Shown here in pieces: positions 2,413 through 56,036 of a stretch of DNA of 64,000 nt; the first letter of the stretch is position 1; the number at the start of each line of letters is the position of its first letter. The notes below the pieces were generated by a model. It saw only the letters and a list, made by a program, of their open reading frames with translations, was not told the origin of the DNA and ran no database searches. The translations under genes were made by a program, and so were the position numbers. Origin of the DNA: an uncultured Rhodobacteraceae bacterium (GTDB taxonomy: Bacteria > Pseudomonadota > Alphaproteobacteria > Rhodobacterales > Rhodobacteraceae). The stretch spans positions 5,889-69,888 of the forward strand of contig CANMTR010000013.1 of assembly GCA_947500825.1 (NCBI GenBank), written 5' to 3'.

Positions 2413-2619
2413 GGGGCTGTTGCGTTGACCCTGTGCTGTGCGGAAGACCCCCGAAACCGGAGTTCGTAGATGTCGGGCAAGCAGCCGTTCGAGTATCACC
2501 GGTTTTCGGCCGTGATCATTCTCCGTGCCGTCCGGATGTACCTTCGGTATCCGCTGTCGTACCAGGATACCGCTGATCGGGGCTGTTGCACTGGCGAGCT
2601 TCGATCGCAGTTCAACTAA
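2413..2619 (+). pseudogene. IS6-family element remnant: left IR plus first ~37 codons of the transposase
   Basis: GGGGCTGTTGCGTTG at 2413-2427 closely matches the left IR of the IS6 copy at 7851. The ATG at 2470 gives MSGKQPFEYHRFSAVIILRAVRMYLRYPLSYQDTADR, which is the conserved IS6 transposase N-terminus. Homology then stops and a stop codon follows at 2617-2619. Confidence 0.7.
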
Positions 2620-2695
2620 GCGTCCGTGCTTCAGGCTGCACGGCGTGCTCCCTCCCAGTATCCGTGCTCAAGGTTCAGCAACGCCGCAGCCCCCG

Positions 2696-39580: not shown

Positions 39581-41386
39581 ATGGAACCGATCGACTACCT
39601 GGTCGCGCTGGAGCCCTGGGCGGCCCTGTCGCCGGGCGACCGCGCGCGGCTGGCCGGCGCGCTGGAGCGGCGCGACTTCGCCGCAGACGACGGCCTCTTC
39701 GAGGCGGGCGAGATGCCGCCCGGCGTGTTCGTGCTGACCTCGGGGCAGGTGCGGGTCACCGACGGGAGCGGAGCCGTCCTGTCGGAGATCGGGCCCGGCG
39801 CGGCGGTGGGGGGACGGCGCCTGCTGCGCGACGCGCCCAACCCGCTTTCGGCCCGCGCGATCGAGGGCGGCAGCGCGCTGGTCGTGCCCGCCGGGCTGTT
39901 CCGCGAACTGGCGCGGGACTATGCGCCCGTGCGCGACTTCTTTCGCATCGACGCGCCGGCCAGGACGCGGCCGCGCAGCCTGGTCACCACGCGGGTGGCC
40001 GAGCTGATGACGCCCGGCCCCCTGGCCGTACCGCCGGCGACCACCGTGCGCGCCGCCGCGCAGGCCATGCGGAAGGCGGGCGTGTCGTCGGTACTGGTGG
40101 GCGAGGACGGCGCGCTGGCCGGCATCCTGACGGTGCGCGACGTCTCCTCCCGGGTGACGGCGGAGGGGCGCGACCCCGCCTGCCCCGTGCGGGAGGTGAT
40201 GACCGCCGACCCGGTGGCGCTGCCGCCCGGGGCGCTGGGATCGGACGTGCTGCACCTGATGATGGAGCGCGGGATCAGCCACGTCCCCATCGTGGACGGC
40301 GGCCGGATCGTGGGCGTGGTCAGCAAGACCGACCTCACCCGGGTGCAGGCGGAAAGCTCGGGCGAGGTGATCGGGGACGCGGCCGCCGCGGGCGACGTGG
40401 CGGAGCTGGCGCGGGTCACCGCGCGCATCCCCGACCTGCTGGCGCAGCTCGTGGGCGCGGGCAACCGCCACGAGGTCGTGACCCGCTGCGTGACGGACGT
40501 GGCCGACGCGGTGACGCGCCGCCTGCTGGCGCTCGCGGAGGCGAAGCTGGGCCCGCCGCCCGTGCCCTATCTGTGGGCCGCCTGCGGCAGCCAGGGGCGG
40601 CAGGAACAGACCGGCGTGTCGGACCAGGACAACGTGCTGATCCTGTCCGACGACGTGTCCGAGGCGGACGACGCCTATTTCGCGGACCTGGCGCGGATCG
40701 TGTCTGACGGCCTTCATGCCTGCGGATACGTCTATTGCCCCGGCGACATGATGGCGACGAACCCGCGCTGGCGCCGCCCTGCGACGGACTGGCGGCGCTA
40801 CTTCCTGGACTGGATCGCGCGACCGGGCCCGGAGGCGCGGATGCTGGCCTCGGTCATGTTCGACCTGCGGCCCGTGGGCGGGGCGCGGGACCTGTTCGAG
40901 GGGCTGGCGGGCGAGACGCTGGAGGCCGCCGCGCGCAACTCGATCTTCGCCGCGCACATGACGGGACAGGCGCTGACCCACCAGCCGCCCCTGGGCTTCT
41001 GGCGGGGGCTCGCCACCAGGCGCTCGGGCGCCCATCGCGACACGATCGACATGAAGATGTCGGGGGTAGTGCCGATCATCGACCTGGCGCGCATCTACGC
41101 GATCCGGGGCGGTCTGCCCCCCGTCAACAGCCGCGCCCGGATCGAGGCGGCGCGACAGGCCGGGACGGTCTCGGGCAAGGGGGGGCGCGACCTGCTCGAC
41201 GCCTACGACGTGATCGCGGAGGCCCGGCTGGAGCACCAGGCCGCCCAGATCCGCGAGGGGCACGCGCCCGACAACTTCATGGCGCCGGGACGGCTCAGCC
41301 CGTTCGAGCGCAGCCACCTGCGCGACGCGTTCCTGGTGGTCAGGACCATGCAATCGGCCGCCGGGCAGCGCCGGGGCGTGCTGTGA
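39581..41386 (+). CDS. cNMP-binding + CBS pair + DUF294 nucleotidyltransferase signalling protein
   Basis: 601 aa. N-terminal cNMP-binding-like region (GVFVLTSGQVRV...IGPGAAVGG), then two CBS motifs, then a pol-beta-type NT motif (ACGSQGRQEQTGVSDQDNVLIL), then a DUF294_C-like tail. Confidence 0.8.
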   Translation: MEPIDYLVALEPWAALSPGDRARLAGALERRDFAADDGLFEAGEMPPGVFVLTSGQVRVTDGSGAVLSEIGPGAAVGGRRLLRDAPNPLSARAIEGGSALVVPAGLFRELARDYAPVRDFFRIDAPARTRPRSLVTTRVAELMTPGPLAVPPATTVRAAAQAMRKAGVSSVLVGEDGALAGILTVRDVSSRVTAEGRDPACPVREVMTADPVALPPGALGSDVLHLMMERGISHVPIVDGGRIVGVVSKTDLTRVQAESSGEVIGDAAAAGDVAELARVTARIPDLLAQLVGAGNRHEVVTRCVTDVADAVTRRLLALAEAKLGPPPVPYLWAACGSQGRQEQTGVSDQDNVLILSDDVSEADDAYFADLARIVSDGLHACGYVYCPGDMMATNPRWRRPATDWRRYFLDWIARPGPEARMLASVMFDLRPVGGARDLFEGLAGETLEAAARNSIFAAHMTGQALTHQPPLGFWRGLATRRSGAHRDTIDMKMSGVVPIIDLARIYAIRGGLPPVNSRARIEAARQAGTVSGKGGRDLLDAYDVIAEARLEHQAAQIREGHAPDNFMAPGRLSPFERSHLRDAFLVVRTMQSAAGQRRGVL

Positions 41387-41392: not shown

Positions 41393-42778
41393 GTGCGACG
41401 TAGGCTCGCCCTGGGCGCGGCCGCCGCGGCGCTGGGGCTGGTGGCGGCAGCCGCCGCCGGTGCGGCCCTGGTGCTGAACGGGCCGGGCGGGGGTGGCGGC
41501 GCGGTCGTGGCCCAGGCGGGGGCCACCGCCTTCGGCGGCGTGCTGGTGGTGGCGGCGGCCTGGCGCTGGCTGGACGCGCGGGTCGCCCTGCCCGCCGAGC
41601 GGCTCGCCGCCGAGTTGCGCGCGCGCTGCCACGGGGGCGTGACCGGACCGCTGGAGGCGGAGGCCTGGGGCGCCATGGGCGACCTCGGCCCGGCGACCTC
41701 GGCGCTGGCCCTGCAACTCGCCCGCGAACGGGCCGACCGGGAGGCGCGCCTGCGCGCGGCGACCGAGGCGCTGGAAGCCGAACGCCGCGACCTGGTGGAG
41801 ACGCTGTCGGAGATCCCGGTGGCGATCCTGGTGGTGGACGGCGACGACCGGCTCAGGCTCTACGACCGGCAGTCGAGCCATGCCCTGAGCGCGGTGGCGA
41901 CGCTGGCCCTGGGGCGCTCGATCTTCGACTACCTGGAGCGGGAGGCGGTCGGCGACGCGCTGGCCGCGCTCGATGCCGGGCCGGCGGGCGGCTTCGTCGA
42001 CAGGGACCTGCCCAAGGCGGACGGGTCGGGGTGCTTGCGCGCGCGGGTGCGGCGGCTGTCGGGCGGGCGCGGGTTCGTGCTGGCAATCGAGGCGGGAGAC
42101 GCGATCCCCGCCGAGCGGCCGCTGGTCTTCGACTTCTCGGCCCTTCCCGAGGACGGCGGCGCGGTGATGGAGCGCCCGCTGGCGGACCTGACCTACGTGG
42201 TGGTGGACACCGAGACGACCGGGCTCGACCCCGCGCGGGACGCGCTGGTCCAGATCGCGGCGGTCCGGGGGATGAAGGGGCGCCGCATCGCTGGCGAGAC
42301 CTTCGAGACGCTGGTCGATCCGGGCCGTCCGATCCCCGGCGCGGCAAGCCGCATCCACGGGATCACCGACGAGCGGGTGGCGGGCGCGCCGGGGCCGATC
42401 CCGGCCATCGCGGCGCTGCACCACTTCGCCCGGGGCGCGGTACTGGTGGCGCACAACGCGCCGTTCGACCTGGCCTTCCTGCGCCGGCAGGGGGCGGGCA
42501 TCCGCTTCGACCACCCGGTGCTCGACACGGTGCTGCTGTCCGCGGCCGTCTGGGGACAGGGCGTGCCCCACACGCTCGACGCCATCGCCGAGCGGCTGGA
42601 GGTGGACCTGCCCGCCGGCCTGCGACACACGGCGCCGGGCGACGCCCAAGCCACCGCCGACGTCCTGTTCCGCCTGCTCGGCATCCTGGAGGGGCGCGGT
42701 GTCGCGACCTTCGGCGACGCGGTGGGGGCCATGCGGCGCCACGAGCGCCTGTTCAGGGACCCGAACCGCGACGCCTGA
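41393..42778 (+). CDS. Membrane-anchored sensor-like protein with C-terminal DEDDh (DnaQ-like) 3'-5' exonuclease domain
   Basis: GTG start 6 nt after the upstream stop. Hydrophobic, Gly-rich N-terminus with a central PAS-like region. Exo motifs VVVDTETTGLD, LVAHNAPFDLAFL and HTAPGDAQATADV. Confidence 0.75.
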   Translation: MRRRLALGAAAAALGLVAAAAAGAALVLNGPGGGGGAVVAQAGATAFGGVLVVAAAWRWLDARVALPAERLAAELRARCHGGVTGPLEAEAWGAMGDLGPATSALALQLARERADREARLRAATEALEAERRDLVETLSEIPVAILVVDGDDRLRLYDRQSSHALSAVATLALGRSIFDYLEREAVGDALAALDAGPAGGFVDRDLPKADGSGCLRARVRRLSGGRGFVLAIEAGDAIPAERPLVFDFSALPEDGGAVMERPLADLTYVVVDTETTGLDPARDALVQIAAVRGMKGRRIAGETFETLVDPGRPIPGAASRIHGITDERVAGAPGPIPAIAALHHFARGAVLVAHNAPFDLAFLRRQGAGIRFDHPVLDTVLLSAAVWGQGVPHTLDAIAERLEVDLPAGLRHTAPGDAQATADVLFRLLGILEGRGVATFGDAVGAMRRHERLFRDPNRDA

Positions 42779-42781
42779 GGA

Positions 42782-44797
42782 TCACACGAGCTTGCGCGGG
42801 ATGCTCTCGCGCCAGGAGACGTCGCGCACCACTTCCTCGCCCTCGGTGGCGCGCAGGCTGGCCTCGATCTCCCACGAGTCCCGCGTGGCCCAGAGCCGGG
42901 TCTTGGTCACGGTGACCACTTCCCAGTCCTCGCGGCGCATGACGTGGGTCCAGGTGACCTGCCCCTCGGCGGAGAGGACGTCGTCGGGCAGGACGGAGTA
43001 GGTCTCCACCCCTTCGGCGGAATGGAACAGGTCCTGCCCCTCGATATGGGCGCCGCCCTCGTGATCGCGCACGTGGACGGTGATGCGGCCCGTGTCCATG
43101 TCCTGGGAGACCGACCATTCGGACTGGGGCGGCTCCTCCATGGTCTGGGGCAGCGGCGCGGCCGCGCGGGGCGGGCCGAAATCGCCGGGCTTGGACGTGC
43201 CGGGCTCGCGCACCGGCAGCGACAGGGCGGTGCCCTCCAGGTGAACGCGCATGGTGACGGGCTCGGGCGTCGGCCAGGCCAGCGGGAAGTAGCTGGTGGA
43301 GATGCCGACCCTGATCCTGTGGCCTTTGCGGAAGGTCTGGGCCACGTGCTTCATCGGCACACGCACGGTGTAGGTGCGGCCCGGCTCGAGCGCCTCGGGC
43401 TCGGCGTGGCTGTCGCGGTGGGTGAGGTTGAAGAGCCCGTAGCTGACCCGCGTGGCCGCGCCGCCCGGCGCCACGTCGCTGAGGCGCACGGCCACCTGGG
43501 CCACGGGGCGGTCCACCTCGAAGGTGAGGTTCAGGCTCGGATCGCCCGCGATCTCCACCGCCGTCTCGAGGGGGTCGGTCTGGAACGTGATCGACCCGGC
43601 GTCGTCGTGGCGCTGGTCGCCCGGCTGGTCTCCGGGATGGGCGTAGGAGCACCACTTGCCGCCATGCATGCCCACCCACAGGGGCGAGGAGATCTCGACC
43701 GAGCCGGTGCCCGCCTCGGCCCCGGCGCGCAAGCCGCCATCGGAGCCGAGCGCGTAGTCGGTGCGGGTGACGTTGGGCGAGGGCCAGGCGCCTTCGGTGA
43801 TCCAGCGCCCGTCGCGGTAGTCGTAATGGGTCGCCGGCTCGGCATGGTCCTGCATGTAGAGACGCAGGGGCGGCTCCTCCATGATGCCGGTGTCGCGGCC
43901 CTTGAGCCACTGGTCCCACCAGCGCGTCTCCTCGGTGAGCCAGTCGATGGCGGGCCCGGGCTCGCCCAGGTGGGGATACTTGTGCGACCAGGGGCCGACG
44001 ATGCCCTTGGCGGGGGATTCGAGGTTCTCCACCAGGCGGAACACGGCGCGGCAATAGCCGTCGGCCCAGCCCGAGACGGCATAGACCGGCACCTGGATGT
44101 CGGCGTAGTTCTCGCAGACCGAGCCGTGGCGCCAGTAGGCGTCGCGATGCTGGTGACGCAGCCACTTCTTCAGCCACAGGCCGGCGCCGTCGAGCCTGTC
44201 CTCCCACATGCCCCGCCAGCGGTCGCCCACGTGGATGGGGTCGGGCGGCAGGGTGTTGATGCCGAACATGATCGACGCCCAGGAGAGCTGGTCCACCAGC
44301 ATGGTGCCGCCCATCCAGTGGATGTCGTCGGCATAGCGGTCGTCGGTGGAGCAGATCGTGACCACGGCCTTGAGCGCGGGGGGCCGCAGGGCGGCGAGCT
44401 GCAACCCGTTGAAGCCGCCCCAGGAGATGCCCACGATCCCCACGCCGCCGTCGCACCAGTCCTGCTCGGCGAGCCAGGCGATCACGTCGCAGCCGTCCCG
44501 CAGCTCGACCTGGGTATACTCGTCGGTCATCACCCCTTCGGATTCGCCGCAGCCGCGCAGATCGACGCGGACATAGGCGTAGCCCTGCCCGGCAAGCCAC
44601 GGCGCGCGGGCGAAGTCGCGTTCCAGCGTCTTGTCGTTCTTGCGATAGGGGATGTATTCGAGGATCGCGGGGACGGGATTGTCCTTGGCGTCCTCGGGCA
44701 TCCAGATGCGCGCGGCGAGCTTGGTGCCGTCCTCGACCGGGATCTCGAAATGCTCGATCTCCCGGACGTTGCTGGTCAGGTCGTGGTCGATCTTCAT
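42782..44797 (-). CDS. CocE/NonD family (peptidase S15-like) alpha/beta hydrolase
   Basis: 671 aa. IPYRKND, nucleophile elbow GISWGG, and a C-terminal PepX_C-like beta domain. Confidence 0.85.
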   Translation of the reverse strand: MKIDHDLTSNVREIEHFEIPVEDGTKLAARIWMPEDAKDNPVPAILEYIPYRKNDKTLERDFARAPWLAGQGYAYVRVDLRGCGESEGVMTDEYTQVELRDGCDVIAWLAEQDWCDGGVGIVGISWGGFNGLQLAALRPPALKAVVTICSTDDRYADDIHWMGGTMLVDQLSWASIMFGINTLPPDPIHVGDRWRGMWEDRLDGAGLWLKKWLRHQHRDAYWRHGSVCENYADIQVPVYAVSGWADGYCRAVFRLVENLESPAKGIVGPWSHKYPHLGEPGPAIDWLTEETRWWDQWLKGRDTGIMEEPPLRLYMQDHAEPATHYDYRDGRWITEGAWPSPNVTRTDYALGSDGGLRAGAEAGTGSVEISSPLWVGMHGGKWCSYAHPGDQPGDQRHDDAGSITFQTDPLETAVEIAGDPSLNLTFEVDRPVAQVAVRLSDVAPGGAATRVSYGLFNLTHRDSHAEPEALEPGRTYTVRVPMKHVAQTFRKGHRIRVGISTSYFPLAWPTPEPVTMRVHLEGTALSLPVREPGTSKPGDFGPPRAAAPLPQTMEEPPQSEWSVSQDMDTGRITVHVRDHEGGAHIEGQDLFHSAEGVETYSVLPDDVLSAEGQVTWTHVMRREDWEVVTVTKTRLWATRDSWEIEASLRATEGEEVVRDVSWRESIPRKLV

Positions 44798-44885
44798 GAT
44801 GGGGCCGCCGGGTGAGTGGTATCGCGGCCGAAGGCTATGGCGCGGCGCCGCGGCCTTGTCCAGTGGCCGCGGCGTGTCGCCCTGG

Positions 44886-46184
44886 CTATTCGGCGATGTC
44901 GGTGAACTCGAAGTTGAGCTTCTTCATCACCTGCTCGTAGTCCCACAGGAGCTTGGAGTGCTTGGACGCGCCCATCCATACGGACGCCACCGCGAAGGAA
45001 TAGGCGTCCTGCTCGGGCAACTCCGACAGCCTCATCCCCTTGCGGGCATGGACGCCGATACGGGTGCCCTCGACCTGTTCCTCGGCGACCTGGGTCTCGG
45101 CCCTGCTGGGCACGCGCGCCACGGTCGCGTCGGAGAAGAACACGCGGTAGAAGAACTCGGCCGCCACGTTCCTGGAGCCTTCGCGGTGGGGCATGTCGGG
45201 CTTGCGCCCGAGGCCCAGATCCACCGTGACCTGCTGGTGGCTGACGCCGTCGACCATCTCGAACAGGTCGCAATGGGACTGGGAGACGCGGGTGTTGATC
45301 TCCAGGAGCCAGATCTTGTCCTGCACCTCGTCCCAGTAATACTCGATGTTGAACGCGGAATTGTCGAAGCCGATATGGCTCATGATCGTGCGCGTGATCT
45401 CCCACATCTTGTCCTGCACCTTCTGGGGCAGGAACGACGGGTAGAGGTAGTAGAAGAAGCTCAGGACCTGCGGGTAGCGGATGGAATCCACGGTGCCGTA
45501 GGGGACGACCTCGCCGCCGTGGACGTAGCCCTCGACGGTGCACTGGCGCCCGCCGATGACCTGCTCGGCCATGCAGTAATGCCCCTCCACCGCGCGGATC
45601 TCGTCGGGGAGGTCGGCCTGGGCCAGGACGTGGTCGAAGGGCTCGCCGATGGAGCGGATCTCGCTGCGGAGCTTTTGCGTCGCGTAGTCGAAATCCTCGG
45701 GGCTATCGATGCGGAACCCCAGCCGCGAGCCGGAGGACTTGATCGGCTTGACGAAGAACGGGAACCGCAGGTCGGCGGCCCCGATCTTGGCCAGCGCCTC
45801 GTCGTCGAACGGGTCGAACGCGGTGAACTTCGGGATGTGGTCCGGGACCGCCTCGCGCATGACCGACCGCGACCAGTACTTGTGCTCGCATTTCAGGAGC
45901 GCCTCGAGCGAGGCCTGCGGGGTGCCGTACTTCTTGCACAGGATCGGCAGGATCGTGGAGACGGGAAAGTCCATGTAGCCCACGATCGCGTCGATCGAGC
46001 CGTCGAAGGCGTCGAGCGTCTTCTCCGCCTCGGCGATCATGGCGGGAATGTCGAACTCCTGCGTGTCGTAGACCAGGGCGGGGTCGATCAGGCCGTGGAA
46101 CTCCACGTCTTCCACGCCGCGCAGGCGACGCAGGCGCTCGGCGTTCAAATCGTTCAAACCGACGACGAAGACGTTCTTGGTCAT
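44886..46184 (-). CDS. ATP-grasp family ligase, substrate unknown
   Basis: Start at MTKNVFVVGL, with GGAGG upstream. ATP-grasp hallmarks: FFVKPIKSSGSRLG, EQVIGGRQCTVEGYV and LLEINTRVSQSH (the E-x-N Mg site). Confidence 0.8.
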   Translation of the reverse strand: MTKNVFVVGLNDLNAERLRRLRGVEDVEFHGLIDPALVYDTQEFDIPAMIAEAEKTLDAFDGSIDAIVGYMDFPVSTILPILCKKYGTPQASLEALLKCEHKYWSRSVMREAVPDHIPKFTAFDPFDDEALAKIGAADLRFPFFVKPIKSSGSRLGFRIDSPEDFDYATQKLRSEIRSIGEPFDHVLAQADLPDEIRAVEGHYCMAEQVIGGRQCTVEGYVHGGEVVPYGTVDSIRYPQVLSFFYYLYPSFLPQKVQDKMWEITRTIMSHIGFDNSAFNIEYYWDEVQDKIWLLEINTRVSQSHCDLFEMVDGVSHQQVTVDLGLGRKPDMPHREGSRNVAAEFFYRVFFSDATVARVPSRAETQVAEEQVEGTRIGVHARKGMRLSELPEQDAYSFAVASVWMGASKHSKLLWDYEQVMKKLNFEFTDIAE

Positions 46185-46257
46185 GTGAGATCCTCCCACG
46201 GGACGTTGAGGCACGGCCCCGACCGGGCCGTGCGTCTGGTTCGAAACGGAAAAGACC

Positions 46258-48900
46258 TCACGTCTGCGCGAGTTCCGCCGGACGGGGAAAGCTGCGCCCT
46301 TTCAACATGTCCGTGGTGCCGGCGATGTCGTCGACCAGCAGGAGCAGGAAGTCGCCCGTCTCGGCGTCGGACATGGCGCGGTCCACCGCGGCGCTCTCCT
46401 CGGGCACCGTCTCGACCCGGCAGTCGTTGTCGGCCGTGGCGGCCCCCTCGTGGATCAACGCGGCCGTCTCGCCCGCCCCGCGTCCGCGGCTGTCGCTCTC
46501 GTAGACGTAGAGGATGTCGCACATCTTCGCCAACTGGGCGCCGAGCGCGCGCAGGTCCTCGTCGCGGCGGTTGCCCGGCGCGGTGGAGACGCCGATCCGG
46601 CGCTTCTGCCCCAGGCCCCGGACCAGCGGCTCCAGCGCCACCAGCGCAGGCACGTTGTGGCCGTAGTCGATCAGGCACTTGAGCCCGTCGGCCTCGAAGT
46701 AGTTCGTCCGCCCCGGCATCTGCGCCGGCGTGGGGTGGAACGTGGCCAGTCCGTTGTGGATGTCGGTGAGGTCGAGCCCGTGGGCCAGCGCCACCGCCGC
46801 CGCCGCCATGGCGTTCTGCACGTTGAAGGGGGCGTGCCCCTCGAAGGCGATGGGCACGTCGTTGACCTCGATGATCTCGGCCTCGACCCGGCCCCGGCGC
46901 ATGATGATGCGCCCGTTCTTGACCGTCACGACCATCCCCAGGTTGCCCAGGTGCTCGGCCAGGTCCGGGTTGTCGGGGTTCATCGTGATGTAGATGATCT
47001 CGCCCCGCGCCCAGTAGGTGCCGTGTTCCATCACCAGCGGATCGTCGGCGTTGAGGACGCAGTAGCCCCCCTCGCGCTTGACCGCGTCCACCACCACCGT
47101 CTTGCAGCGCGCCAGTTCCTCGAGCGTGTGGATGTCGCGCTCGCCCAGGTGGTCGGAGGCGATGTTGAGGAGCACGCCCACGTCGCATTCGTCGAAGCCC
47201 AGGCCCCGGCGCATGATGCCGCCGCGCGCCACCTCGAGCACCGCGTGCTCGACGGTCGGCTCGCGCAGGACCGCCTGGGCGGCCGCCGGGCCGGAGTAGT
47301 CACCCTTCAGGATCACGTGGTTGTCGATCTCCACCGTGCCGGTGCAGCCCAGGCCCACGGAATTGCCCGCCTGGCGCAGGATGTGGGCCGAGAGGCGGGT
47401 CGTGGTGGTCTTGCCGTTGGTGCCGGTGATCGCGGTGATCGGGATGCGGCCGTTGTCGGTCGGGTCGGGGAACAGCATGTCGACCACGTGCTCGCCCACC
47501 GGCCGGGCATGGCCGTGGGTGGGCGACATGTGCATGCGGAAGCCCGGGCCCGCGTTGACCTCCACCACGCCCGCCGGTTGCTCGCTCAGGGGCTTGGAGA
47601 GGTCCTCGGCCAGCAGGTCGATGCCGATGATGTCGAGGCCCACGAGGCGGCCGATCCGCTCCATGGTGAACTTGACGTCGGGGTGGACCTCGTCGGTGAG
47701 ATCGGTGGCCGTACCCCCGGTGGAGATGTTTGCCGTCGATTTCAGGAAGGCGATCTCGCCCTGGGGCAGGACCGTGTCGAGCGTCAGGTTGGCCTGTTCG
47801 AGCATCCGCAGGCTCTGCTCGTCCACGTTGATCTGGGTGAGCAGGTTCTCGTGGCCGACACCGCGGCGGGGGTCCTGGTTCTCCACGTCCACGAGCTCGC
47901 GGATGGTGGAGCGGCCGTCGCCCACGACGTGGGCGGGCCGGCGCCGGGCGGCGGCGACCAGGTGGCCGTCTATCACCAGCATGCGGTGATCCTCGCCCTT
48001 GATGTAGCTTTCCACGATCACGGCCTGCTCGGCGTCGCGGGCGCGCGCCACCGCCGCCTCGTAGCCCGAGCGCAGGTCGTCGCGGGTGTTGATGTCGGTG
48101 GTCACCCCGCGGCCGTGGTTGCCCGAGAGGGGCTTGGTCACGACCGGGAACCCGATCCAGTCGGCGGCGGCTTCCGCGTCCTCGTAGGAGTAGCAGATCT
48201 GGCCCTGGGGCACGGGAATGCCCGCGTCGCCCAGGACCTGCTTGGTCCAGTCCTTGTCGTCGGCGATGGAGTGGCCGATGATCCCCGTCCCGCTGGTCAC
48301 GGTGGCCTGGAAGCGGCGCTGCTTGGCGCCGTGGCCGAGCTGGGTGTAGCTCGTCCCTTCCATCAGGTTGTAGGAGGGGATGCCGCGCGCCCTGGCGGCA
48401 TTCACGATCGCGCCCGTCGAGGGGCCGAGCGCGTTGGCGTCGCGCACCTGCTTGAGCCGCGCGATATGAGGCGCGAGGTCGACCGGGTCGCCGTCGTAAA
48501 GCTTCTGCACGATGTCGACGGCGGCCTCGCCGGCGGCGAGGCCCGTGGCCTCGTCCCGGTAGCGGTAGACGACGTTGTAGATGCCCGGCTCGTAGCTGTC
48601 GACGGTCTTGCCGTAGCCGACCGAGAAGCCGACCATGTTCTGCAGCTCGATGGCCACGTGCTCGACCATGTGGCCGGCATAGGTGCCCGACCGGACGCGC
48701 TGGAGGAAACCGCCCGGCTCGCCCACCGAGCAGCGATGCTCGTAGACCTCGGGCATCAGCGCCTCGAGCGCCTCGGCGATGCCGGCGACCTTGTCGCTCG
48801 GCCGCTCCTCCAGCTCCTCGATGTCGAGGCGCATGTAGATCGCCACGTACCGGCTATAGTAGTTCGGCCCGCGCAGCGCGCGGTGTTCAATTATGCGCAA
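46258..48900 (-). CDS. cphA: Cyanophycin synthetase
   Basis: 880 aa with a TTG start. Has the N domain (MRIIEHRALRGPNYY), an ATP-grasp G domain and a Mur-ligase-like M domain (ITGTNGKTTT). Confidence 0.92.
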   Translation of the reverse strand: MRIIEHRALRGPNYYSRYVAIYMRLDIEELEERPSDKVAGIAEALEALMPEVYEHRCSVGEPGGFLQRVRSGTYAGHMVEHVAIELQNMVGFSVGYGKTVDSYEPGIYNVVYRYRDEATGLAAGEAAVDIVQKLYDGDPVDLAPHIARLKQVRDANALGPSTGAIVNAARARGIPSYNLMEGTSYTQLGHGAKQRRFQATVTSGTGIIGHSIADDKDWTKQVLGDAGIPVPQGQICYSYEDAEAAADWIGFPVVTKPLSGNHGRGVTTDINTRDDLRSGYEAAVARARDAEQAVIVESYIKGEDHRMLVIDGHLVAAARRRPAHVVGDGRSTIRELVDVENQDPRRGVGHENLLTQINVDEQSLRMLEQANLTLDTVLPQGEIAFLKSTANISTGGTATDLTDEVHPDVKFTMERIGRLVGLDIIGIDLLAEDLSKPLSEQPAGVVEVNAGPGFRMHMSPTHGHARPVGEHVVDMLFPDPTDNGRIPITAITGTNGKTTTTRLSAHILRQAGNSVGLGCTGTVEIDNHVILKGDYSGPAAAQAVLREPTVEHAVLEVARGGIMRRGLGFDECDVGVLLNIASDHLGERDIHTLEELARCKTVVVDAVKREGGYCVLNADDPLVMEHGTYWARGEIIYITMNPDNPDLAEHLGNLGMVVTVKNGRIIMRRGRVEAEIIEVNDVPIAFEGHAPFNVQNAMAAAAVALAHGLDLTDIHNGLATFHPTPAQMPGRTNYFEADGLKCLIDYGHNVPALVALEPLVRGLGQKRRIGVSTAPGNRRDEDLRALGAQLAKMCDILYVYESDSRGRGAGETAALIHEGAATADNDCRVETVPEESAAVDRAMSDAETGDFLLLLVDDIAGTTDMLKGRSFPRPAELAQT

Positions 48901-49750
48901 CGTTCCGCTCCGTCTTCGAAGCCCCGAGCTCTTGCGGAGTCAGGACCCGCCGGTCCGACAGGGAATATCCGTACCCGTCGACCAGCGCATGCATGATGAC
49001 GTTGGAAACGCTCACCGCCTCCCCGTCGTGTAAATCGTAAACATTGGAGCCGGTTATCTGGGAACTGTCAACGATGACCACGTGACCGGGGCCGAAGCTG
49101 TGCACGATTCCGTCCGAGAACAGCACCGCCGCGTCCTCCCCCAGCCCGATGCCGATATATTCGGGATTCGTCGCCCCCACCTCCATCAGCCGCGAGAAAC
49201 GCCCGCGCTCGAGGAAGTGGGTGTCGATGATGACGTTGTCCTGCACGAGGCCGAAGCCCGCGCTCATCTTCACCGCGCCCTTGCGCAGGGAGTCGTCGGA
49301 GGGGCCGCCATATACCATCGTGGCCGACTGGCACGCGGCACCAGCACTGGTGCCGGCCACCACCGCGCCCGCCTCGCGGCGGCGGCGGATGGCGTCGAGG
49401 GTCCGGCAGCCGCCCATCGTGTTGGTGAGCCGCATCTGGTCGCCGCCGGAAATGAAGACCACGTCGCAGCGGTCGATCATGTCCACGAACTTCTGCTCGT
49501 CGGCATGGGCGCGGGTCCGGATGCGCACGTCGAGCGTCTCGGACGCGCCGAGCCGGGCGAAGACGTCGGCATAGCCCGGGAACACGTCGTCGGGGACGCT
49601 GCTCGCGGTGGTGATGACCCCCACCACGGGGGCGTCCGCGTCCGACATCTCCAGCACCTGTTGCAGGATGACGGCCTCGGCCGTCTTGTCTTCGGCACCG
49701 CCGATGGCGACGAGCGGTCCTTGTCGGGTTATCTTCTCGGTCATGTTCAA
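48887..49750 (-). CDS. cphB: Cyanophycinase (peptidase S51)
   Basis: 287 aa. VAIGGAEDK, FISGGDQ, nucleophile motif AGTSAGA. Overlaps the cphA start by 14 nt. Confidence 0.9.
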   Translation of the reverse strand: MNMTEKITRQGPLVAIGGAEDKTAEAVILQQVLEMSDADAPVVGVITTASSVPDDVFPGYADVFARLGASETLDVRIRTRAHADEQKFVDMIDRCDVVFISGGDQMRLTNTMGGCRTLDAIRRRREAGAVVAGTSAGAACQSATMVYGGPSDDSLRKGAVKMSAGFGLVQDNVIIDTHFLERGRFSRLMEVGATNPEYIGIGLGEDAAVLFSDGIVHSFGPGHVVIVDSSQITGSNVYDLHDGEAVSVSNVIMHALVDGYGYSLSDRRVLTPQELGASKTERNVAHN

Positions 49751-49932
49751 CTTTCAGAGGCCTCGTGCCGATCGCGTCGGGGTCGAACCTAGCCTCCCGG
49801 CGCACGGGATCACAGGCCATTTCCGCGCCGCGACCGCGCTGCTACATGCGGAACACACATCCGCCCGAAATTGTGACCTCAGGCGCCCTTCCGCGCCGGG
49901 AGACGGGCGGGACCGCGAAGGGAACGGCGACG

Positions 49933-50889
49933 ATGACATACTCTCTGGCGATCCACGGCGGCGCGGGCGTGATCCCGCGGGACGCGATGGACGCGGACGG
50001 CGAACGCGACCACAACGCCGCGCTCGCGCGCATCCTCGAAGAGGCCGAGGCGGTCCTGCGGGACGGCGGCGACGCGATGGAGGCGGTCACGGTCGCGGTC
50101 TGCGCGCTGGAGGACGAACCGCTGTTCAACGCCGGGCACGGCGCCGTCTACACCGCCGCGGGCCGGCTGGAGATGGACGCGGCCGTGATGGACGGGGTGG
50201 GCCGCCGCGCCGGCGCGGTCGCCGGCATCTGCGGGCCGCGCAATCCGATCCTGGCCGCGCGCGCGGTGATGGAGCGCACCGGCCACGTGCTGATGGTGGG
50301 CGAGGGGGCGCTGGAGATCGCGCGCGACGCTGGCCTCACCTTCGAGGACCCGAGCTATTTCCGCACCGAGCAGCGCTGGCAGGCGCTCAAGGAGACGCTG
50401 CGGATGATGGAGGACGGCACGCTCGACGACGACCCCTCGCGCCGCCACGGCACCGTGGGCGCGGTGGCGCGCGACCGCGCCGGGCACCTGGCGGCGGCCA
50501 CCTCGACGGGGGGCATGACCGCCAAGCGTCCGGGCCGCGTGGGCGACAGCCCGATTCCCGGCGCGGGCACCTTCGCTGACGACGCCACATGCGCGATCTC
50601 GGCCACCGGCGACGGGGAGGCCTTCATCCGCTGGGCGGCAGCGCACGAGATCGACGCGCGGATGCGGCTCGCGGGGCGCTCCTGCGCCGAGGCCGCCCAC
50701 GGCGTGGTGATGACGGACCTGGCCCAGAACGGCGGCTCGGGCGGCCTGATCGCGGTGGACCGCGACGGCCGGATCTCCCTGCCCTTCAACTGCGAGGGGA
50801 TGTACCGGGGCTGGGCCATGGAGGACGGCCCCCGCGGCACCGCGATCTACGGCCCCGTGGAGGACCCGGCCCCGGCCACCGGGACGTAG
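49933..50889 (+). CDS. iaaA: Isoaspartyl dipeptidase / L-asparaginase (Ntn hydrolase)
   Basis: Within the ORF 49765..50889, from MTYSLAIHGGAGV. Autoprocessing Thr in HGTVGAVA. Divergent from cphB. Confidence 0.88.
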   Translation: MTYSLAIHGGAGVIPRDAMDADGERDHNAALARILEEAEAVLRDGGDAMEAVTVAVCALEDEPLFNAGHGAVYTAAGRLEMDAAVMDGVGRRAGAVAGICGPRNPILAARAVMERTGHVLMVGEGALEIARDAGLTFEDPSYFRTEQRWQALKETLRMMEDGTLDDDPSRRHGTVGAVARDRAGHLAAATSTGGMTAKRPGRVGDSPIPGAGTFADDATCAISATGDGEAFIRWAAAHEIDARMRLAGRSCAEAAHGVVMTDLAQNGGSGGLIAVDRDGRISLPFNCEGMYRGWAMEDGPRGTAIYGPVEDPAPATGT

Positions 50890-51092: not shown

Positions 51093-51190
51093 CGCGGGGT
51101 CCCCCCTGCCCGGCCTTGCGCCGGGCAATCTTGACAGCCTCGGGAAAAGTATATCACGGCTGGGCAAATGCCATCGCACCGGATGCCCCC

Positions 51191-52543
51191 ATGGCCGACC
51201 TGACACCGATCGACCGGCTGGAGGCCGACCACCCGGAGGTGGACGCCGTCTTCGCGTGCATCTGCGACCTGAACGGCGTGATGCGCGGCAAGCGCCTGCC
51301 CGCCGACCAGATCGACAAGGTGCGCGAGGGGGGGCTGCGGATGCCGCTCTCGCTGCTGGGCATGGATATCTGGGGCGAGGACGTGGAAGGCTCGGACCTG
51401 GTGTTCGACACCGGCGACGCAGACGGGATCTGCGAGCATACCGGGCGCCCCTTGAGCCTGCTGAACTGGACGGCGCGGCCCACCGCCTTCGTCCAGCTCT
51501 GGACCCGGCAGGAGGACGGCCGCCCCTTCCCCGGCGATCCGCGCCGGGCGCTGGCGGCGGTGGTCGCGCGTCTCGCGGCGATGGGGCTGACGCCGGTGGT
51601 GGCCACCGAACTCGAGTTCTACATCGTCGATCCCAGCGGCGCCGCGCCCGAACCGCCCTGCTCGCCCGTCACCGGCAAGCGGCTCGATTCCGACGGGGCG
51701 CTGTCGCTCGACGAGCTGCAGCACTTCGACGCGCTGCTCAACGAGATCTACGACGGGTGCCGGGCCCAGGACATTCCCGCCGACAGCGCCATATCGGAGA
51801 ACGGCGCGGGACAGTTCGAGATCAACTTCGCCCATGCCGCCGACCCGCTGAAGGCCGCCGACGACGCGGTCCTGTTCAAGAGGCTGGTGCGCGGGCTGGC
51901 GCGCAAGCACGGCTTCGCCGCCACCTTCATGGCCAAGCCCTACGGCGACCGGGCGGGATCGGGGATGCATGCCCATGTCTCCCTGGTGGACGGGGACGGG
52001 CGCAACGCCTTCGACGGCGACAACGCGGAAGGCACGCCGCTGCTGCGCCACGCCGTCGCCGGGCTCCTGCGGACCATGCAGGAGAACGCGCTGGTCTTCG
52101 CGCCGCACGAGAACTCCTATCGCCGGCTGCTGCCCGGCGCCCACGCGCCGGCCGCCGTCGCCTGGGGCTACGAGAACCGCACGGTGGCGATCCGCATCCC
52201 CGGCGGGCCGTCGGCCGCGCGGCGCATCGAGCACCGGGTCGCGGGCGCGGACGCCAACCCCTACCTGGTGCTGGCCGCGATCCTGGGCGGCATGGCGCTG
52301 GGGATCGAACGGGGATGGGAGCCGCCCGACCCGGTGACGGGGGACGCCTATTCCCTGCGCCTCGACCGGCTGCCGCCCGACTGGGCCTCGGCCATCGACG
52401 CGTTCTCGGGCGGCCGCCACGTGGCCGACATCCACGCGCCCCGGCTGGTGCGGATGTTCGAGCAGACCAAGCGCCAAGAGCTCAGGCGCTTCACCCGCCA
52501 CGTGACCGATTTCGAGTACCATTCCTACCTGGAGGTCGTGTGA
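51191..52543 (+). CDS. Glutamine synthetase-like gamma-glutamyl-polyamine synthetase (PuuA/PauA-like)
   Basis: Starts at MADLTPID. Type III GS-like catalytic region (ELEFYIV, NGAGQFEIN, GSGMHAHVS, YENRTVAIRIP). Confidence 0.8.
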   Translation: MADLTPIDRLEADHPEVDAVFACICDLNGVMRGKRLPADQIDKVREGGLRMPLSLLGMDIWGEDVEGSDLVFDTGDADGICEHTGRPLSLLNWTARPTAFVQLWTRQEDGRPFPGDPRRALAAVVARLAAMGLTPVVATELEFYIVDPSGAAPEPPCSPVTGKRLDSDGALSLDELQHFDALLNEIYDGCRAQDIPADSAISENGAGQFEINFAHAADPLKAADDAVLFKRLVRGLARKHGFAATFMAKPYGDRAGSGMHAHVSLVDGDGRNAFDGDNAEGTPLLRHAVAGLLRTMQENALVFAPHENSYRRLLPGAHAPAAVAWGYENRTVAIRIPGGPSAARRIEHRVAGADANPYLVLAAILGGMALGIERGWEPPDPVTGDAYSLRLDRLPPDWASAIDAFSGGRHVADIHAPRLVRMFEQTKRQELRRFTRHVTDFEYHSYLEVV

Positions 52544-53844
52544 TGCGCCCCTCCTACGCCGGCGGCGGCGAGCATGCCGCGAGCCACTACGCCGCCACCG
52601 CCAACCCCGCCCCGGAGCGACCGAGGCTGGAGGGCGACCGCGAGGTGGACGTCTGCGTCGTGGGCGCGGGCTTCTCGGGCCTGTCCACGGCCCTGCACCT
52701 CGCCGAGGCGGGCCATTCGGTGACCGTGGTGGAAGGCGCGCGGGTGGGCTGGGGCGCTTCGGGGCGCAACGGCGGGCAGCTCGTCAACGGGCTCAACGCT
52801 GGGATCGACGTGTTCCGCCACCGCTTCGGCGCCGACACCGCGCGCTTCGTCGCCGGGCTGGTGCTGGAGGGGGGCGACATCATCCGCGACCGGGTGGCGC
52901 GCTACGGGATCGACTGCGACCTGAAGGACGGCAACGTCTTCGCCGCGCTGACGGGCAAGCACATGGCGGGGCTGGCGGCCAAGCGCGACCTGTGGGCGAG
53001 CCACGGCCTCGACAACCTGGACCTCCTGGACCGCGACGCGATGCGCGAGCACGTGGCGAGCGATGTCTATGTCGGGGGGATGCTCGACCGGCGGGGCGGG
53101 CACCTTCACCCGCTCAACCTCGCGCTCGGCGAGGCCGCCGCCATCGAGGGGCTGGGCGGCACGATCCACGAGCACTCGCCGGTCACGCGGGTGGAGGCCG
53201 ACGCGGCCCGCCCGACGATCCGCACCAAGCACGGCCGGATCACGGCCCGGACGCTGGTCCTGTGCGGCAACGCCTATCTGGGCCGGGTCGTGCCGAGCCT
53301 GACCTGGCGGGTCATGCCCGTCTCCACCCAGATCATGGCGACCGAGCCCCTGGGAGAGGAGCGCGCCCGCGCCCTGATGCCCGCGGACACCTGCGTGGAG
53401 GACGTGCGCTACATCCTCGACTACTACCGCATGTCGGCCGATCACCGGCTGCTGTTCGGGGGCGGAACCGTCTATGGCGGCAGCGAGCCGCGCGACATCA
53501 AGCGCAAGCTGGTGCGCGCCATGGACCGGGTCTTTCCCTCGCTCGGGGACGTGGGGATCGACTATGCCTGGTCGGGCAACTTCGCGCTGGCCTTCACCCG
53601 GGTGCCGCAGCTCGGCCGGATCGGGGACAACACGTACTTCGCCCACGGCTATTCCGGCCACGGCGTCTCGGGGTCGCACCTGTTCGGACGCATCCTGGCC
53701 CAGGCCATCGACGGCGACCTGTCGCGCTTCGACACCTTCGCGGGGCTGCCCTGGCTGCCCTTTCCCGGGGGGCGCGCCCTGCGCGTTCCCTATTCCGTCC
53801 TGGGGTCGTGGTGGTACGCCGCGCGCGACCGCCTGGGCGCCTGA
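52543..53844 (+). CDS. FAD-dependent oxidoreductase (PuuB/gamma-glutamylputrescine oxidase-like)
   Basis: Starts at a TGATG overlap with the upstream stop. Dinucleotide fold motif DVCVVGAGFSGLSTAL. DAO family. Confidence 0.8.
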   Translation: MRPSYAGGGEHAASHYAATANPAPERPRLEGDREVDVCVVGAGFSGLSTALHLAEAGHSVTVVEGARVGWGASGRNGGQLVNGLNAGIDVFRHRFGADTARFVAGLVLEGGDIIRDRVARYGIDCDLKDGNVFAALTGKHMAGLAAKRDLWASHGLDNLDLLDRDAMREHVASDVYVGGMLDRRGGHLHPLNLALGEAAAIEGLGGTIHEHSPVTRVEADAARPTIRTKHGRITARTLVLCGNAYLGRVVPSLTWRVMPVSTQIMATEPLGEERARALMPADTCVEDVRYILDYYRMSADHRLLFGGGTVYGGSEPRDIKRKLVRAMDRVFPSLGDVGIDYAWSGNFALAFTRVPQLGRIGDNTYFAHGYSGHGVSGSHLFGRILAQAIDGDLSRFDTFAGLPWLPFPGGRALRVPYSVLGSWWYAARDRLGA

Positions 53845-53859
53845 CACCGGAGAGACCCG

Positions 53860-54939
53860 ATGCCCCCCCTGATCCCCGCCACCCTCCTGATGCTGGCCCC
53901 GCTGGCCGCGCAGGCGCAAGACACGCTCAACTTCTACAACTGGTCGGACTACATTGCCGACGGCACCCTGCCCGGCTTCGAGGAGGCGGCCGGGATCGAG
54001 GTGAACTACGACGTGTTCGATTCCAACGAGGTGGTCGAGGCGCGGATGCTGACGGGCAACACCGGCTACGACCTGGTGGTGCCCTCGCTCGAGTTCATGG
54101 CGCGGCAGGCCCAGGCGGGGGTGTTCCAGCCGATCGACAAGAGCCGGATCTCCACCTACGGCAACCTCGACCCCGAGATCCTGCGCATCGTGTCGGGCAA
54201 CGACGCGGGCAACACCTACGGTGTGCCGTACATGATGTATTCCATCGGGCCGGGCTACAACGTGGAGATGGTGTCCGAGCGGCTGCCCGACGCGAACACG
54301 GACAGCTGGTCGCTGGTCTTCGACCCCGCCAACGCCGAGGCGCTGGCCGATTGCGGCATCGCGCTGCTGGACTCGCCCTCGGAGATCACGGCCGCGGCGC
54401 TGAACTACCTGGAGCTCGACCCGACCTCGGAGGACGCGGGCGATCTGGAGCAGGCGATGGAGCTGCTGGAAGGTATCCGGCCGCACATCCGCTACTTCCA
54501 TTCCTCGCAATACATCAACGACCTGGCCAATGGCGACATCTGCCTCGCCGTGGGCTATTCGGGCGACATCCTGCAGGCCAAGGAGCGCGCGGCCGAGGCC
54601 GGACAGGGCGTCGACATCCGCTACGTCATCCCCGAGGAGGGAGCGCAGCTCGGCTTCGACATGATGGTGATCCCCGCCGACGCGCCCAACCCCGGTGCCG
54701 CGCATGCCTTCATAGAATACTTCCTGCAGCCCGAGGTGACCGCCGCGATCTCCGACGCGGTGTTCTACGCCAATGCCAACAAGGCCGCCACGCCGCTCGT
54801 CTCGGCCGAGGTCAGGGATGATCCCGGCATCTACCCGCCCGAGGCGACCCTGTCCCGGATGTACTCGGCCGAGCCTCACTCGGCCCGCTACGACCGGGCG
54901 CTGACCCGCGCCTGGACCACGCTCAAGACCGGGCGCTGA
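53860..54939 (+). CDS. potF: Putrescine/spermidine ABC transporter substrate-binding protein
   Basis: 359 aa with a signal peptide. LNFYNWSDYI is a PotD/PotF hallmark. Confidence 0.88.
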   Translation: MPPLIPATLLMLAPLAAQAQDTLNFYNWSDYIADGTLPGFEEAAGIEVNYDVFDSNEVVEARMLTGNTGYDLVVPSLEFMARQAQAGVFQPIDKSRISTYGNLDPEILRIVSGNDAGNTYGVPYMMYSIGPGYNVEMVSERLPDANTDSWSLVFDPANAEALADCGIALLDSPSEITAAALNYLELDPTSEDAGDLEQAMELLEGIRPHIRYFHSSQYINDLANGDICLAVGYSGDILQAKERAAEAGQGVDIRYVIPEEGAQLGFDMMVIPADAPNPGAAHAFIEYFLQPEVTAAISDAVFYANANKAATPLVSAEVRDDPGIYPPEATLSRMYSAEPHSARYDRALTRAWTTLKTGR

Positions 54940-54947
54940 GGCACGCC

Positions 54948-56036
54948 ATGTCCGAGGCCCCCTTCGTGCGCATCGAGGGCCTGACCCGGCGCTACGGCGC
55001 GGTGCGGGCGGTGGAGGACGTGAGCCTCGACATCGCCCGCGGCGAGCTGTTCTGCCTACTGGGGGGGTCGGGCTGCGGCAAGTCCACCCTGCTGCGGATG
55101 CTCGCGGGCTTCGAGACGCCGACGGCGGGGCGGGTGGTGATCGACGGGCGCGACATGGCGGGCGTGGCGCCGCATGCGCGCGACACCAACATGATGTTCC
55201 AGTCCTACGCCCTGTTCCCCCACATGAGCGTCGCGCGCAACGTGGGCTACGGCCTGCGGCGCGCGGGGCTGTCGCGACACGATACCGCGGCTCGCGTGGA
55301 CGAGATGCTGGACCTGGTGCAGATGGCCCCCCTCGCGCGCCGCAAGCCCGACCAGCTCTCCGGCGGGCAGCGCCAGCGGGTGGCGCTCGCCCGCGCGCTG
55401 GCGCGGCGCCCGAAGCTTCTGCTCCTCGACGAGCCGCTGGGCGCGCTCGACCGCAAACTCAGGGAAGAGACCCAGCTCGAGCTGAAGAAGATCCAGTCCA
55501 GCACCGGCGTCACCTTCGTCGTGGTCACCCACGACCAGGAGGAGGCGATGATCCTGGGCGACCGCCTGGGCGTCATGCGCGACGGGCGGATCGAGCAGGT
55601 GGGCACGCCGGTGGAGGTCTACGAGCATCCCCGCTCGCGGTTCGTGGCCGGGTTCATCGGCACCGCGAACCTCCTGGACGGCACCATCGCCGAGGACGCC
55701 CGCGACCACGCCCGTATCGCCTGCCCGGAAGCGGGCCTCGACATCCACGTGGGCCACACGGTGGCGGGCGCGAAGGGCGAGGCCGTGTGCGTGGTCCTGC
55801 GCCCAGAGAAGATCGCCCTGGGGGCACAGGCCGAGGGCTTGCCCAACCGCGTCGAGGGACGGGTGGAGCAGGTCGTCTACAACGGCAACCTGTCCATGTT
55901 CCACGTCAGCCTTCCCTCGGGCACGCGCCTGCGCGCGGCCCGCGCCAACACCGTGCGCGGGGTGGACGCGCCCGGCCCGGGCGAGGCGGTGACGCTGGGC
56001 TGGCCCGGCTCGGCGGCGGTGGTGCTGCCCGCATGA
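54948..56036 (+). CDS. potG: Polyamine ABC transporter ATPase
   Basis: Walker A GGSGCGKST, signature LSGGQRQR, Walker B LLLLDEP, and a TOBE-like C-terminus. Confidence 0.9.
   Translation: MSEAPFVRIEGLTRRYGAVRAVEDVSLDIARGELFCLLGGSGCGKSTLLRMLAGFETPTAGRVVIDGRDMAGVAPHARDTNMMFQSYALFPHMSVARNVGYGLRRAGLSRHDTAARVDEMLDLVQMAPLARRKPDQLSGGQRQRVALARALARRPKLLLLDEPLGALDRKLREETQLELKKIQSSTGVTFVVVTHDQEEAMILGDRLGVMRDGRIEQVGTPVEVYEHPRSRFVAGFIGTANLLDGTIAEDARDHARIACPEAGLDIHVGHTVAGAKGEAVCVVLRPEKIALGAQAEGLPNRVEGRVEQVVYNGNLSMFHVSLPSGTRLRAARANTVRGVDAPGPGEAVTLGWPGSAAVVLPA

Follow-up and report, generated by a model that had tools for sequence, protein, structure and literature searches.

Cyanophycin metabolism, as currently understood, relies on one synthetase (CphA1 or CphA2), on cyanophycinases, and on dipeptidases of three kinds. 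Among the genes covered by published bioinformatic studies of cyanophycin are cphA1, cphA2, cphB, cphE, cphI, iaaA, iadA, and cphZ, and a "gene weakly homologous to cocaine esterase" beside a cphA1-cyanophycinase cluster has been noted as a possible dipeptidase (PMC10206079). Here, we describe a 64,000-nucleotide (nt) stretch of DNA from an uncultured Rhodobacteraceae bacterium (contig CANMTR010000013.1, positions 5,889 to 69,888), hereafter called the window, which holds a complete cyanophycin locus (cphB-cphA with a divergent iaaA) and, attached to it, a two-gene module for a stand-alone ATP-grasp ligase and a CocE/NonD-type (peptidase S15) serine hydrolase. As our comparison of related loci revealed, what is conserved as a unit is the ATP-grasp/S15 pair; most such pairs are found away from cph genes, and the pair is therefore an autonomous module that has been recruited to cph loci, and not a dedicated cyanophycin accessory. 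In the literature searched, we found no stand-alone ATP-grasp enzyme and no ATP-grasp/esterase pair linked to cyanophycin, which agrees with an earlier reading of the window, made from the letters of the DNA alone (the original prediction), according to which no function had been described for such a pair in cyanophycin metabolism.

The cphA gene (46258-48900, minus strand) encodes an 880-residue protein assigned as the cyanophycin synthetase CphA1, both by the equivalog hidden Markov model (HMM) TIGR02068 (1117.2 bits against a cutoff of 850) and by Pfam matches to Cyanophycin_syn, RimK, and Mur_ligase_M/C, with the N, G (ATP-grasp), and M (Mur-ligase) domains all present. In its N domain, the Cx19HxxEH site is intact in the translation (C-SVGEPGGFLQRVRSGTYAG-HMVEH), this being the primer-generating site that predicts primer independence (PMC9262961). 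The preceding cphB gene (48887-49750, minus strand), for which the ATG at 49744 is the likelier start, encodes a cyanophycinase of the S51 family (TIGR02069; 213.8 bits against a cutoff of 126.6) whose GxSAG-type nucleophile motif reads GTSAGA. As read from the sequence, cphB and cphA overlap by 14 nt, and this same overlap is kept in about 50 of 60 loci. Divergent from cphB, iaaA (49933-50889, plus strand) encodes an isoaspartyl aminopeptidase/asparaginase that matches Asparaginase_2 (PF01112) at 1.8e-99 and carries the autoprocessing threonine motif HGTVGAVA. Its score falls below the cutoff of the NCBIfam equivalog for beta-aspartyl-peptidase (NF007589; 312.4 bits against 567); the protein belongs to the family, but this model does not show it to be the equivalent of E. 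coli IaaA. Downstream of cphA on the same strand, the ATP-grasp gene (44886-46184, minus strand; 432 residues) follows after 73 nt, and the S15 gene (42782-44797, minus strand; 671 residues) after a further 88 nt. The start of the ATP-grasp gene is an ATG preceded by GGGAGG, and the mechanical open reading frame (ORF) extends to a GTG at 46214 (442 residues). From the ORFs and the sequence, we could confirm all that the original prediction had given for the five genes, namely their strands, motifs, overlap, and two gaps.

Relatives of the module were gathered in a scan with the ATP-grasp protein as query and one genome per species, which supplied the best 80 of 594 relatives (66-87% identity), and in a metagenome scan seeded with distant members, which supplied 80 further loci (likewise the best 80), the majority from samples with soda-lake- or saltern-like names; the gene contexts were scored by tblastn with the window proteins. 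Moreover, an exhaustive search of representative proteins with the ATP-grasp protein yielded 393 clusters at E <= 1e-30. For 102 loci, at least 3 kb of sequence is available on either side; of these, 88 have S15 in the flank, 63 have cphA or cphB, 53 have S15 plus a cph gene, and four have neither. Adjacency of the pair holds at ATP-grasp identities from 33% to 87% and in both gene orders, with S15 followed by ATP-grasp in 36 loci and ATP-grasp followed by S15 in at least 28. Here, a large clade (38-44% identity) has S15 immediately upstream of ATP-grasp on the same strand in 36 loci, and in several pairs the stop codon of one gene overlaps the start codon of the next. The pairwise identities of the two proteins are themselves correlated (r = 0.84 for 112 loci). 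In fact, the two are also found as a single ATP-grasp::S15 fusion of 1115 residues (328-3675 in both L081 and L173), these being Logan assemblies with adjacent run numbers that may share one study, while an 881-residue tandem double ATP-grasp followed by an S15 gene is found in L174 and L175 (8001-12731). The doubled ATP-grasp suggests two successive ligations, and the fusion hints that the two enzymes form a complex.

At 33-64% ATP-grasp identity, there are contexts in which S15 adjoins and no cph genes are present, as in Anaerohalosphaera lusitana, a Spirochaetia metagenome-assembled genome (MAG), Streptomyces rimosus, and several metagenome lineages. Among the best 80 of 594 relatives, ten Halomonas and two Rhodovibrio-type loci also have the pair without cph genes within 10 kb. 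ATP-grasp relatives of about 30% identity occur without S15. Our search of plasmids found no cph-linked copy, the only relatives there being from Streptomyces, Sphingobium, and Paraburkholderia. As side observations, in some Roseovarius genomes, S15 is present as two paralogues with 69% and 63% identity to the protein of the window (P0311 and P0384, on one 4.31-Mb contig), and carriers of the pair are often halophiles or derive from samples with saline-, soda-lake-, or saltern-like names (Halomonas, Rhodovibrio, Desulfohalobiaceae, Salar de Ascotan MAGs, Anaerohalosphaera, and SL_*KL sediment samples), a trend that may stem from the bias of the best-80 lists and to which Streptomyces rimosus is a counter-example.

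The arrangement in the window is not a chance juxtaposition, as it recurs in about 50 other genomes with differing flanks. Among the best 80 of 594 relatives, colinear cphB-cphA-ATPgrasp-S15 is found in about 50 loci from Rhodobacterales, Aurantimonas, Chelativorans, Devosiaceae, and Aquibaculum, with iaaA divergent in about 44 of these. Loci with cphB-cphA-ATPgrasp and no S15 belong to Desulfobacterota, Trueperaceae, and Ferruginivarius. In Billgrantia saliphila, cphB-cphA-amidohydrolase is divergent from the ATP-grasp/S15 pair, and in Halomonas korlensis, the only genome checked genome-wide, cphA is on a separate contig from the unlinked pair; CphA is common in Halomonadaceae. A second, distant clade, in which ATP-grasp is 44-49% and CphA 42-49% identical to those of the window, keeps the five gene families together in a rearranged form (metagenome contigs with soda-lake-like names). 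Here, cphA is divergent from cphB-ATPgrasp, and S15 is located either directly after cphA (L158 and L164) or before iaaA on the opposite strand (L152, L155, L161, L166, and L167). Linkage of the pair to cyanophycin genes is thus seen in two ATP-grasp clades that are distant from each other and differ in gene order, though a single recruitment and then repeated loss could also have left this distribution. Divergent from S15 in L155 is a gene with an ArgZ-like C-terminal domain of the arginine dihydrolase family (12623-13717, plus strand), a neighbor that hints at a link to arginine catabolism.

The identities of ATP-grasp closely follow those of CphA (r = 0.98 for 69 loci) and CphB (r = 0.97). 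All-against-all clustering of 1030 neighbouring ORFs revealed no conserved neighbour beyond the five genes, with the sole exception of a Halomonas-specific synteny (a TelA-like gene and a BCCT transporter, by our reading of the sequences), and the block therefore moves as a module. With respect to the suggestion in the original prediction that the pair could act on cyanophycin or on the units released from it, the phylogenetic tie is real, being evident from the colinear loci and the second clade, but the pair is mostly found away from cph genes. In cph-linked loci, S15 and iaaA are both present in 37, S15 alone in nine, and iaaA alone in two; we considered S15 as a substitute for IaaA and rejected this on the basis of their co-occurrence in the 37 loci.

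This recurrence also bears on whether the pair has anything to do with cyanophycin, for it could instead make and degrade, for instance, a dipeptide-type compatible solute or some other small amide, and have come to lie beside cph genes via co-transfer or a nitrogen- or salt-responsive regulation. Such an explanation would suit a pair that stands alone in most clades and among housekeeping genes, that has many carriers which are halophiles or, by their names, from saline or soda-lake sources, whose S15 gene appears to have its own promoter (see below), and between whose members unrelated genes can be inserted. However, adjacency to cph is kept across three phyla in which the flanks are not conserved, and it recurs in the rearranged architecture at CphA identities of only 42-49%. 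Moreover, ATP-grasp and S15 each occur in an operon-like unit with cphA, cphB, or iaaA, and chance adjacency within 10 kb of a ~4-Mb genome should be roughly 0.5% per genome by our estimate. A function wholly unrelated to cyanophycin is, in our judgment, unlikely.

Turning to the proteins, the ATP-grasp enzyme carries the motifs FFVKPIKSSG and LLEINTR, matches ATP-grasp_4 and the C-terminal part of CPSase_L_D2 in Pfam and nothing else, and reaches no NCBIfam cutoff. When compared with the window CphA by BLASTP, it shows no significant similarity (E = 0.18 over 54 residues), just as the original prediction had held for the CphA G domain, and it lacks the resemblance to the N and G domains of CphA that marks a CphA2-type protein. 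While a sequence search of the protein data bank (PDB) with the single protein gave nothing significant, a search of solved structures with the family profile, which was needed here, identified BL00235 as best by far (E = 4.5e-18), with urea amidolyase, carbamoyl-phosphate synthetase, and BacD behind it. An AlphaFold2 model, for which 69 members of the family were used, has a predicted local distance difference test (pLDDT) score of 95.6, and a Foldseek search of the PDB with this model gave the top template modelling (TM) score for BL00235 (PDB ID: 3vot; 0.72/0.76), along with 0.68-0.70 for YwfE/BacD and 0.64/0.71 for RizA. Judged from this profile and the modelled fold, L-amino-acid ligases (BL00235, BacD, and RizA) are the nearest relatives of known structure, and with HMM and Foldseek classification now run, the guess of such a ligase in the original prediction has gained support. 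The ATP- and Mg-binding residues Lys146 (K146), Glu295 (E295), Asn297 (N297), and Arg299 (R299) are at least 90% conserved among the 69 sequences. On inspection of the N-termini of the ATP-grasp and S15 proteins, neither has a signal peptide.

Biotin carboxylases gave the lowest Foldseek E-values, which are comparable to those of the ligases, but had lower TM scores than the L-amino-acid ligases. These E-values, together with the source names "acetyl-CoA carboxylase biotin carboxylase subunit" and "urea carboxylase" and a weak match to a urea carboxylase model in the C-terminal half, could be taken to indicate an enzyme of the biotin carboxylase or urea-carboxylase type that, with the hydrolase, would cleave an amide or guanidine compound at the expense of ATP. 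Yet the HMM scores are far under their cutoffs (TIGR02712, 28.6 against 1303.85; NF009471, 18 against 686), neither a biotin carrier nor a carboxyltransferase gene is among the conserved neighbours, and the top profile match and TM scores belong to L-amino-acid ligases. We rejected the carboxylase annotation on account of these scores and the lack of partner genes, and regard a function of this sort as highly improbable.

As for the hydrolase, the S15 protein matches Peptidase_S15 (PF02129; 1e-67) and PepX_C (PF08530; 4e-44), carries the motif GISWGG, and scores 252.9 bits with TIGR00976 (CocE_NonD), well over the cutoff of 66.3, which bears out its earlier assignment as a CocE/NonD enzyme. 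The models for Xaa-Pro dipeptidyl-peptidase are not reached (NF003780, 89.9 against 642; NF003782, 41.6 against 711). In addition to an alpha/beta-hydrolase core and a PepX_C jelly roll, the AlphaFold2 model (pLDDT 83) has a C-terminal domain of all-beta structure at about residues 540-671. The top Foldseek match is cocaine esterase (24% identity, target-normalised TM 0.75), the archaeal S15 aminopeptidase and alpha-amino-acid ester hydrolases being less close. The triad of S125, D246, and H272 is invariant in alignments of 24 and 43 homologues, and we take these residues to be the counterparts of S117, D259, and H287 in CocE. With their catalytic residues kept, both the ATP-grasp and S15 proteins look like active enzymes. 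The only low-confidence segments of the S15 model (pLDDT <50; residues 52-55, 83-92, 152-157, and 245-247) coincide with invariant active-site motifs (GESEG...DEY, DDRY, and the region of the catalytic Asp), and may be mobile substrate-binding loops.

The spacers on either side of the ATP-grasp gene have median lengths among the loci of 70 nt (cphA to ATP-grasp) and 77 nt (ATP-grasp to S15). In the first of these, folding of the window sequence (73 nt; -38.2 kcal/mol, z = -3.4) places a GC-rich stem-loop of 9 base pairs at 46211-46233 (minus strand). Equivalent hairpins of unrelated sequence are found in nine of ten related cphA-ATP-grasp spacers (z of -2 to -3.7), the one in L001 being followed by UUUU, and no sequence motif of this spacer is conserved across related loci. 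Given this GC-rich hairpin, transcription from cphB-cphA is probably attenuated there. The second spacer does have a conserved motif, TGGAC(A/T)-N17-(G/C)ATA, which in the window is a promoter-like TGGACA-N17-CATA (44836-44862, minus strand) situated ~35 nt upstream of the S15 start codon. It is the single match in the 64-kb window (0.04 expected), and the strict motif occurs in the ATP-grasp-S15 spacer of 25 related loci, against two matches in 2.8 Mb elsewhere. A consensus promoter scan of 42500-50200 found nothing, with its -10 rule excluding CATAGC, and a sigma-54 reading of the motif was rejected because the spacing proved unsuitable on inspection of the sequences.

In two relatives, a gene is inserted between ATP-grasp and S15, this being a BLUF blue-light sensor gene in L001 (11311-11958, minus strand) and a membrane-protein ORF in L005 (11339-12103, minus strand). 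Despite these inserts, TGGAC-N17-GATA stays upstream of S15. We infer that the motif is the S15 promoter, as predicted from its position and conservation, and because TGGAC-N17-GATA is conserved, separate control of S15 is plausible. With a hairpin after cphA, a promoter-like motif before S15, and inserted genes in some relatives, the simple co-transcription for which the original prediction had suggested a check is doubtful. That prediction had also reckoned that promoters of their own, combined with the lack of any association with cphA in other genomes, would tell against a role for the two genes in cyanophycin metabolism; here, the association with cphA is present, but a promoter-like motif was indeed found for S15.

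Among the functions we considered, small-molecule ligase chemistry is the best fit for the ATP-grasp protein, as supported by the BL00235 profile and the TM scores, and since the pair is often without cph genes nearby, substrates independent of the polymer are favoured. We tentatively propose, while giving it somewhat less than an even chance, that the pair operates a ligase/hydrolase cycle on small peptides of a putative Asp/Arg type. The ligase would use ATP, via an acyl-phosphate intermediate, to join small cytoplasmic substrates of the Asp/Arg pool, with the free amino acids Asp and Arg, or else the beta-Asp-Arg that CphB sets free, as candidates, and would yield a dipeptide or short peptide in soluble form. 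The S15 protein, as an exopeptidase or amidase matched to the ligase, would cleave this peptide again, with the two enzymes forming a make-and-break cycle that could buffer the amino acids entering and leaving cyanophycin. Expression of S15 from its own promoter would then allow synthesis and breakdown to be switched separately.

Several points weigh against this proposal. No sequence feature names Asp or Arg as a substrate, and most pair loci have no cph gene within 8-10 kb (e.g., Streptomyces rimosus and Anaerohalosphaera lusitana), and therefore the primary substrate of the module may be unrelated to cyanophycin. Moreover, the cphB-cphA-ATPgrasp loci without S15 indicate that the ligase can work without this hydrolase, and the fusion of ligase and hydrolase would, if unregulated, amount to a futile cycle. 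The loci themselves come from two best-80 lists, which are biased and not random samples, and the functions of the promoter and hairpin are predictions.

Some of the same observations can be turned toward the polymer. According to this alternative, the pair acts on cyanophycin or its oligomers, with the ATP-grasp enzyme re-ligating beta-Asp-Arg in a CphA2-like recycling or priming, or else adding or capping residues, and with S15 either being an exo-hydrolase for the trimming of chains or caps or a "cryptic" isoaspartyl dipeptidase. This is consistent with the tight placement of ATP-grasp downstream of cphA (by the median gap of 70 nt) or of cphB, and with its retention beside cphB-cphA where S15 has been lost. 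In addition, the relatives of S15 include aminopeptidases and dipeptidyl-peptidases, its many invariant acidic residues could, we suppose, bind arginine, and the cocaine-esterase-like gene beside cphA1-cphB has been proposed as a candidate dipeptidase (Sharon and Schmeing; PMC10206079). Against this, the ATP-grasp protein and the G domain of CphA are not related, most members of the family are far from any cph gene, S15 accompanies iaaA instead of replacing it, and no natural side-chain-extended or capped cyanophycin was found in the literature searched. Nor should extra priming be needed by the window CphA with its Cx19HxxEH site, and as this site is retained, we rejected the supply of primers for CphA as the main role. 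Action on the polymer thus seems rather unlikely, though it deserves to be taken seriously, and the decoration of cyanophycin that was raised in the original prediction is not favoured.

The proposed cycle on small Asp/Arg-type peptides can be carried further, though this is speculative and we think it improbable as a whole. The pair could be an autonomous and widespread system for making and degrading a nitrogen-rich small peptide (an Asp-Arg-type dipeptide or short oligomer) that serves as a soluble buffer, store, or compatible solute. If true, there would be a second, cphA-independent route of amino-acid storage, repeatedly wired into cph loci and possibly favoured in saline habitats.

More generally, the presence of this conserved and catalytically intact pair in the cph loci of more than 50 species, and again in the rearranged architecture of the distant clade, suggests that the current description of cyanophycin metabolism probably lacks a step or a pathway running in parallel, and such a step could be the recycling, buffering, or modification of Asp/Arg units. 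For the field, this provides two concrete enzymes with many orthologues, including in the Roseivivax halodurans cluster, from which IaaA has already been purified. Were the product to be a defined dipeptide or a modified cyanophycin, there would be biotechnological use in the enzymatic synthesis of dipeptides and in tailored cyanophycin. Assigning a single function would annotate hundreds of protein clusters, among them the pair-only, fusion, and doubled-ligase forms.

The flanks of the window are unrelated to cyanophycin, and include a DEDD exonuclease, a DUF294/CBS protein, and a glutamine synthetase (GS)-like enzyme. The first two of these form a gene pair that is syntenic in L001-L003 and L056. 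One member (39581-41386) encodes a DUF294/CBS/cyclic nucleotide (cNMP)-binding nucleotidyltransferase, and the other (41393-42778) the DEDD exonuclease, which is extended at its N-terminus by a long stretch. Beside iaaA is a gene set resembling those for polyamine uptake and catabolism (puu/pot-like; 51116-56036, plus strand), with a GS-like gamma-glutamyl-amine synthetase (GGputSyn below cutoff), a DAO-type flavin adenine dinucleotide (FAD) oxidoreductase, an SBP_bac_8 binding protein, and an ABC ATPase with TOBE_2; this set is common to only the window and its closest relative, L001. A gamma-glutamyltranspeptidase gene is located at 36969-38672 (minus strand).

Of the described systems, the cluster of Roseivivax halodurans, whose IaaA has been characterised (Sharon and Schmeing, 2023; PMC10206079), matches the window in its core layout, with cphB overlapping cphA and iaaA divergent, and this bacterium carries an S15 orthologue (P0291) that is 71% identical to that of the window. 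However, the published cphB-cphA/iaaA/iadA clusters are described as having a synthetase, a cyanophycinase, and dipeptidases only, with the ATP-grasp gene unmentioned and an esterase-like gene noted solely as a possible dipeptidase in another genome (PMC10206079). The cyanophycin dipeptide hydrolase CphZ/AotO (PMC9974463) clusters with cph genes in some genomes but is far commoner in genomes and loci without cphA, in which it resembles the pair; in contrast, CphZ is an M14-type metallo-enzyme, whereas the pair couples a ligase with a serine hydrolase of the S15 family. The cyanobacterial beta-Asp-Arg re-polymerase CphA2 is likewise ATP-grasp-based, is encoded with cyanophycin genes, and reuses degradation products, which is one possible role here. 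Nonetheless, CphA2 is paralogous to CphA1 and consists of N, G, and M domains, while the ATP-grasp protein of this locus is non-cyanobacterial and has no detectable similarity to CphA.

With the L-amino-acid ligases (BL00235, YwfE/BacD, and RizA), the ATP-grasp protein shares a three-domain ATP-grasp fold and a similar size (TM 0.64-0.76), but the identity is 16% or less, and the known ligases belong to antibiotic or other pathways and have no S15 partner. Similarly, the S15 protein shares the fold and triad (GISWGG, SGWADGY, and GPWSH) of the CocE/NonD hydrolases (cocaine esterase, alpha-amino-acid ester hydrolases, the thaumarchaeal aminopeptidase, and PepX), yet differs from CocE in its 24% identity, extra C-terminal beta domain, and obligate ATP-grasp partner. 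Couples of a ligase and a hydrolase acting on one bond are known from the glutathionylspermidine synthetase/amidase, in which the two are fused, and from Ddl or VanA with DdpX or VanX. There, the coupling of an amide ligase with a hydrolase allows fast control of a metabolite pool, though as the families and substrates are unrelated to those here, the analogy is one of logic only. Both of the extra proteins belong to known superfamilies, and in this regard nothing is categorically new. Even so, the ATP-grasp/S15 pair defines a family that is without functional annotation, and, including the fusion, the version with a doubled ligase, and the recurrent insertion beside cph genes, it constitutes an undescribed variant of the cyanophycin cluster.

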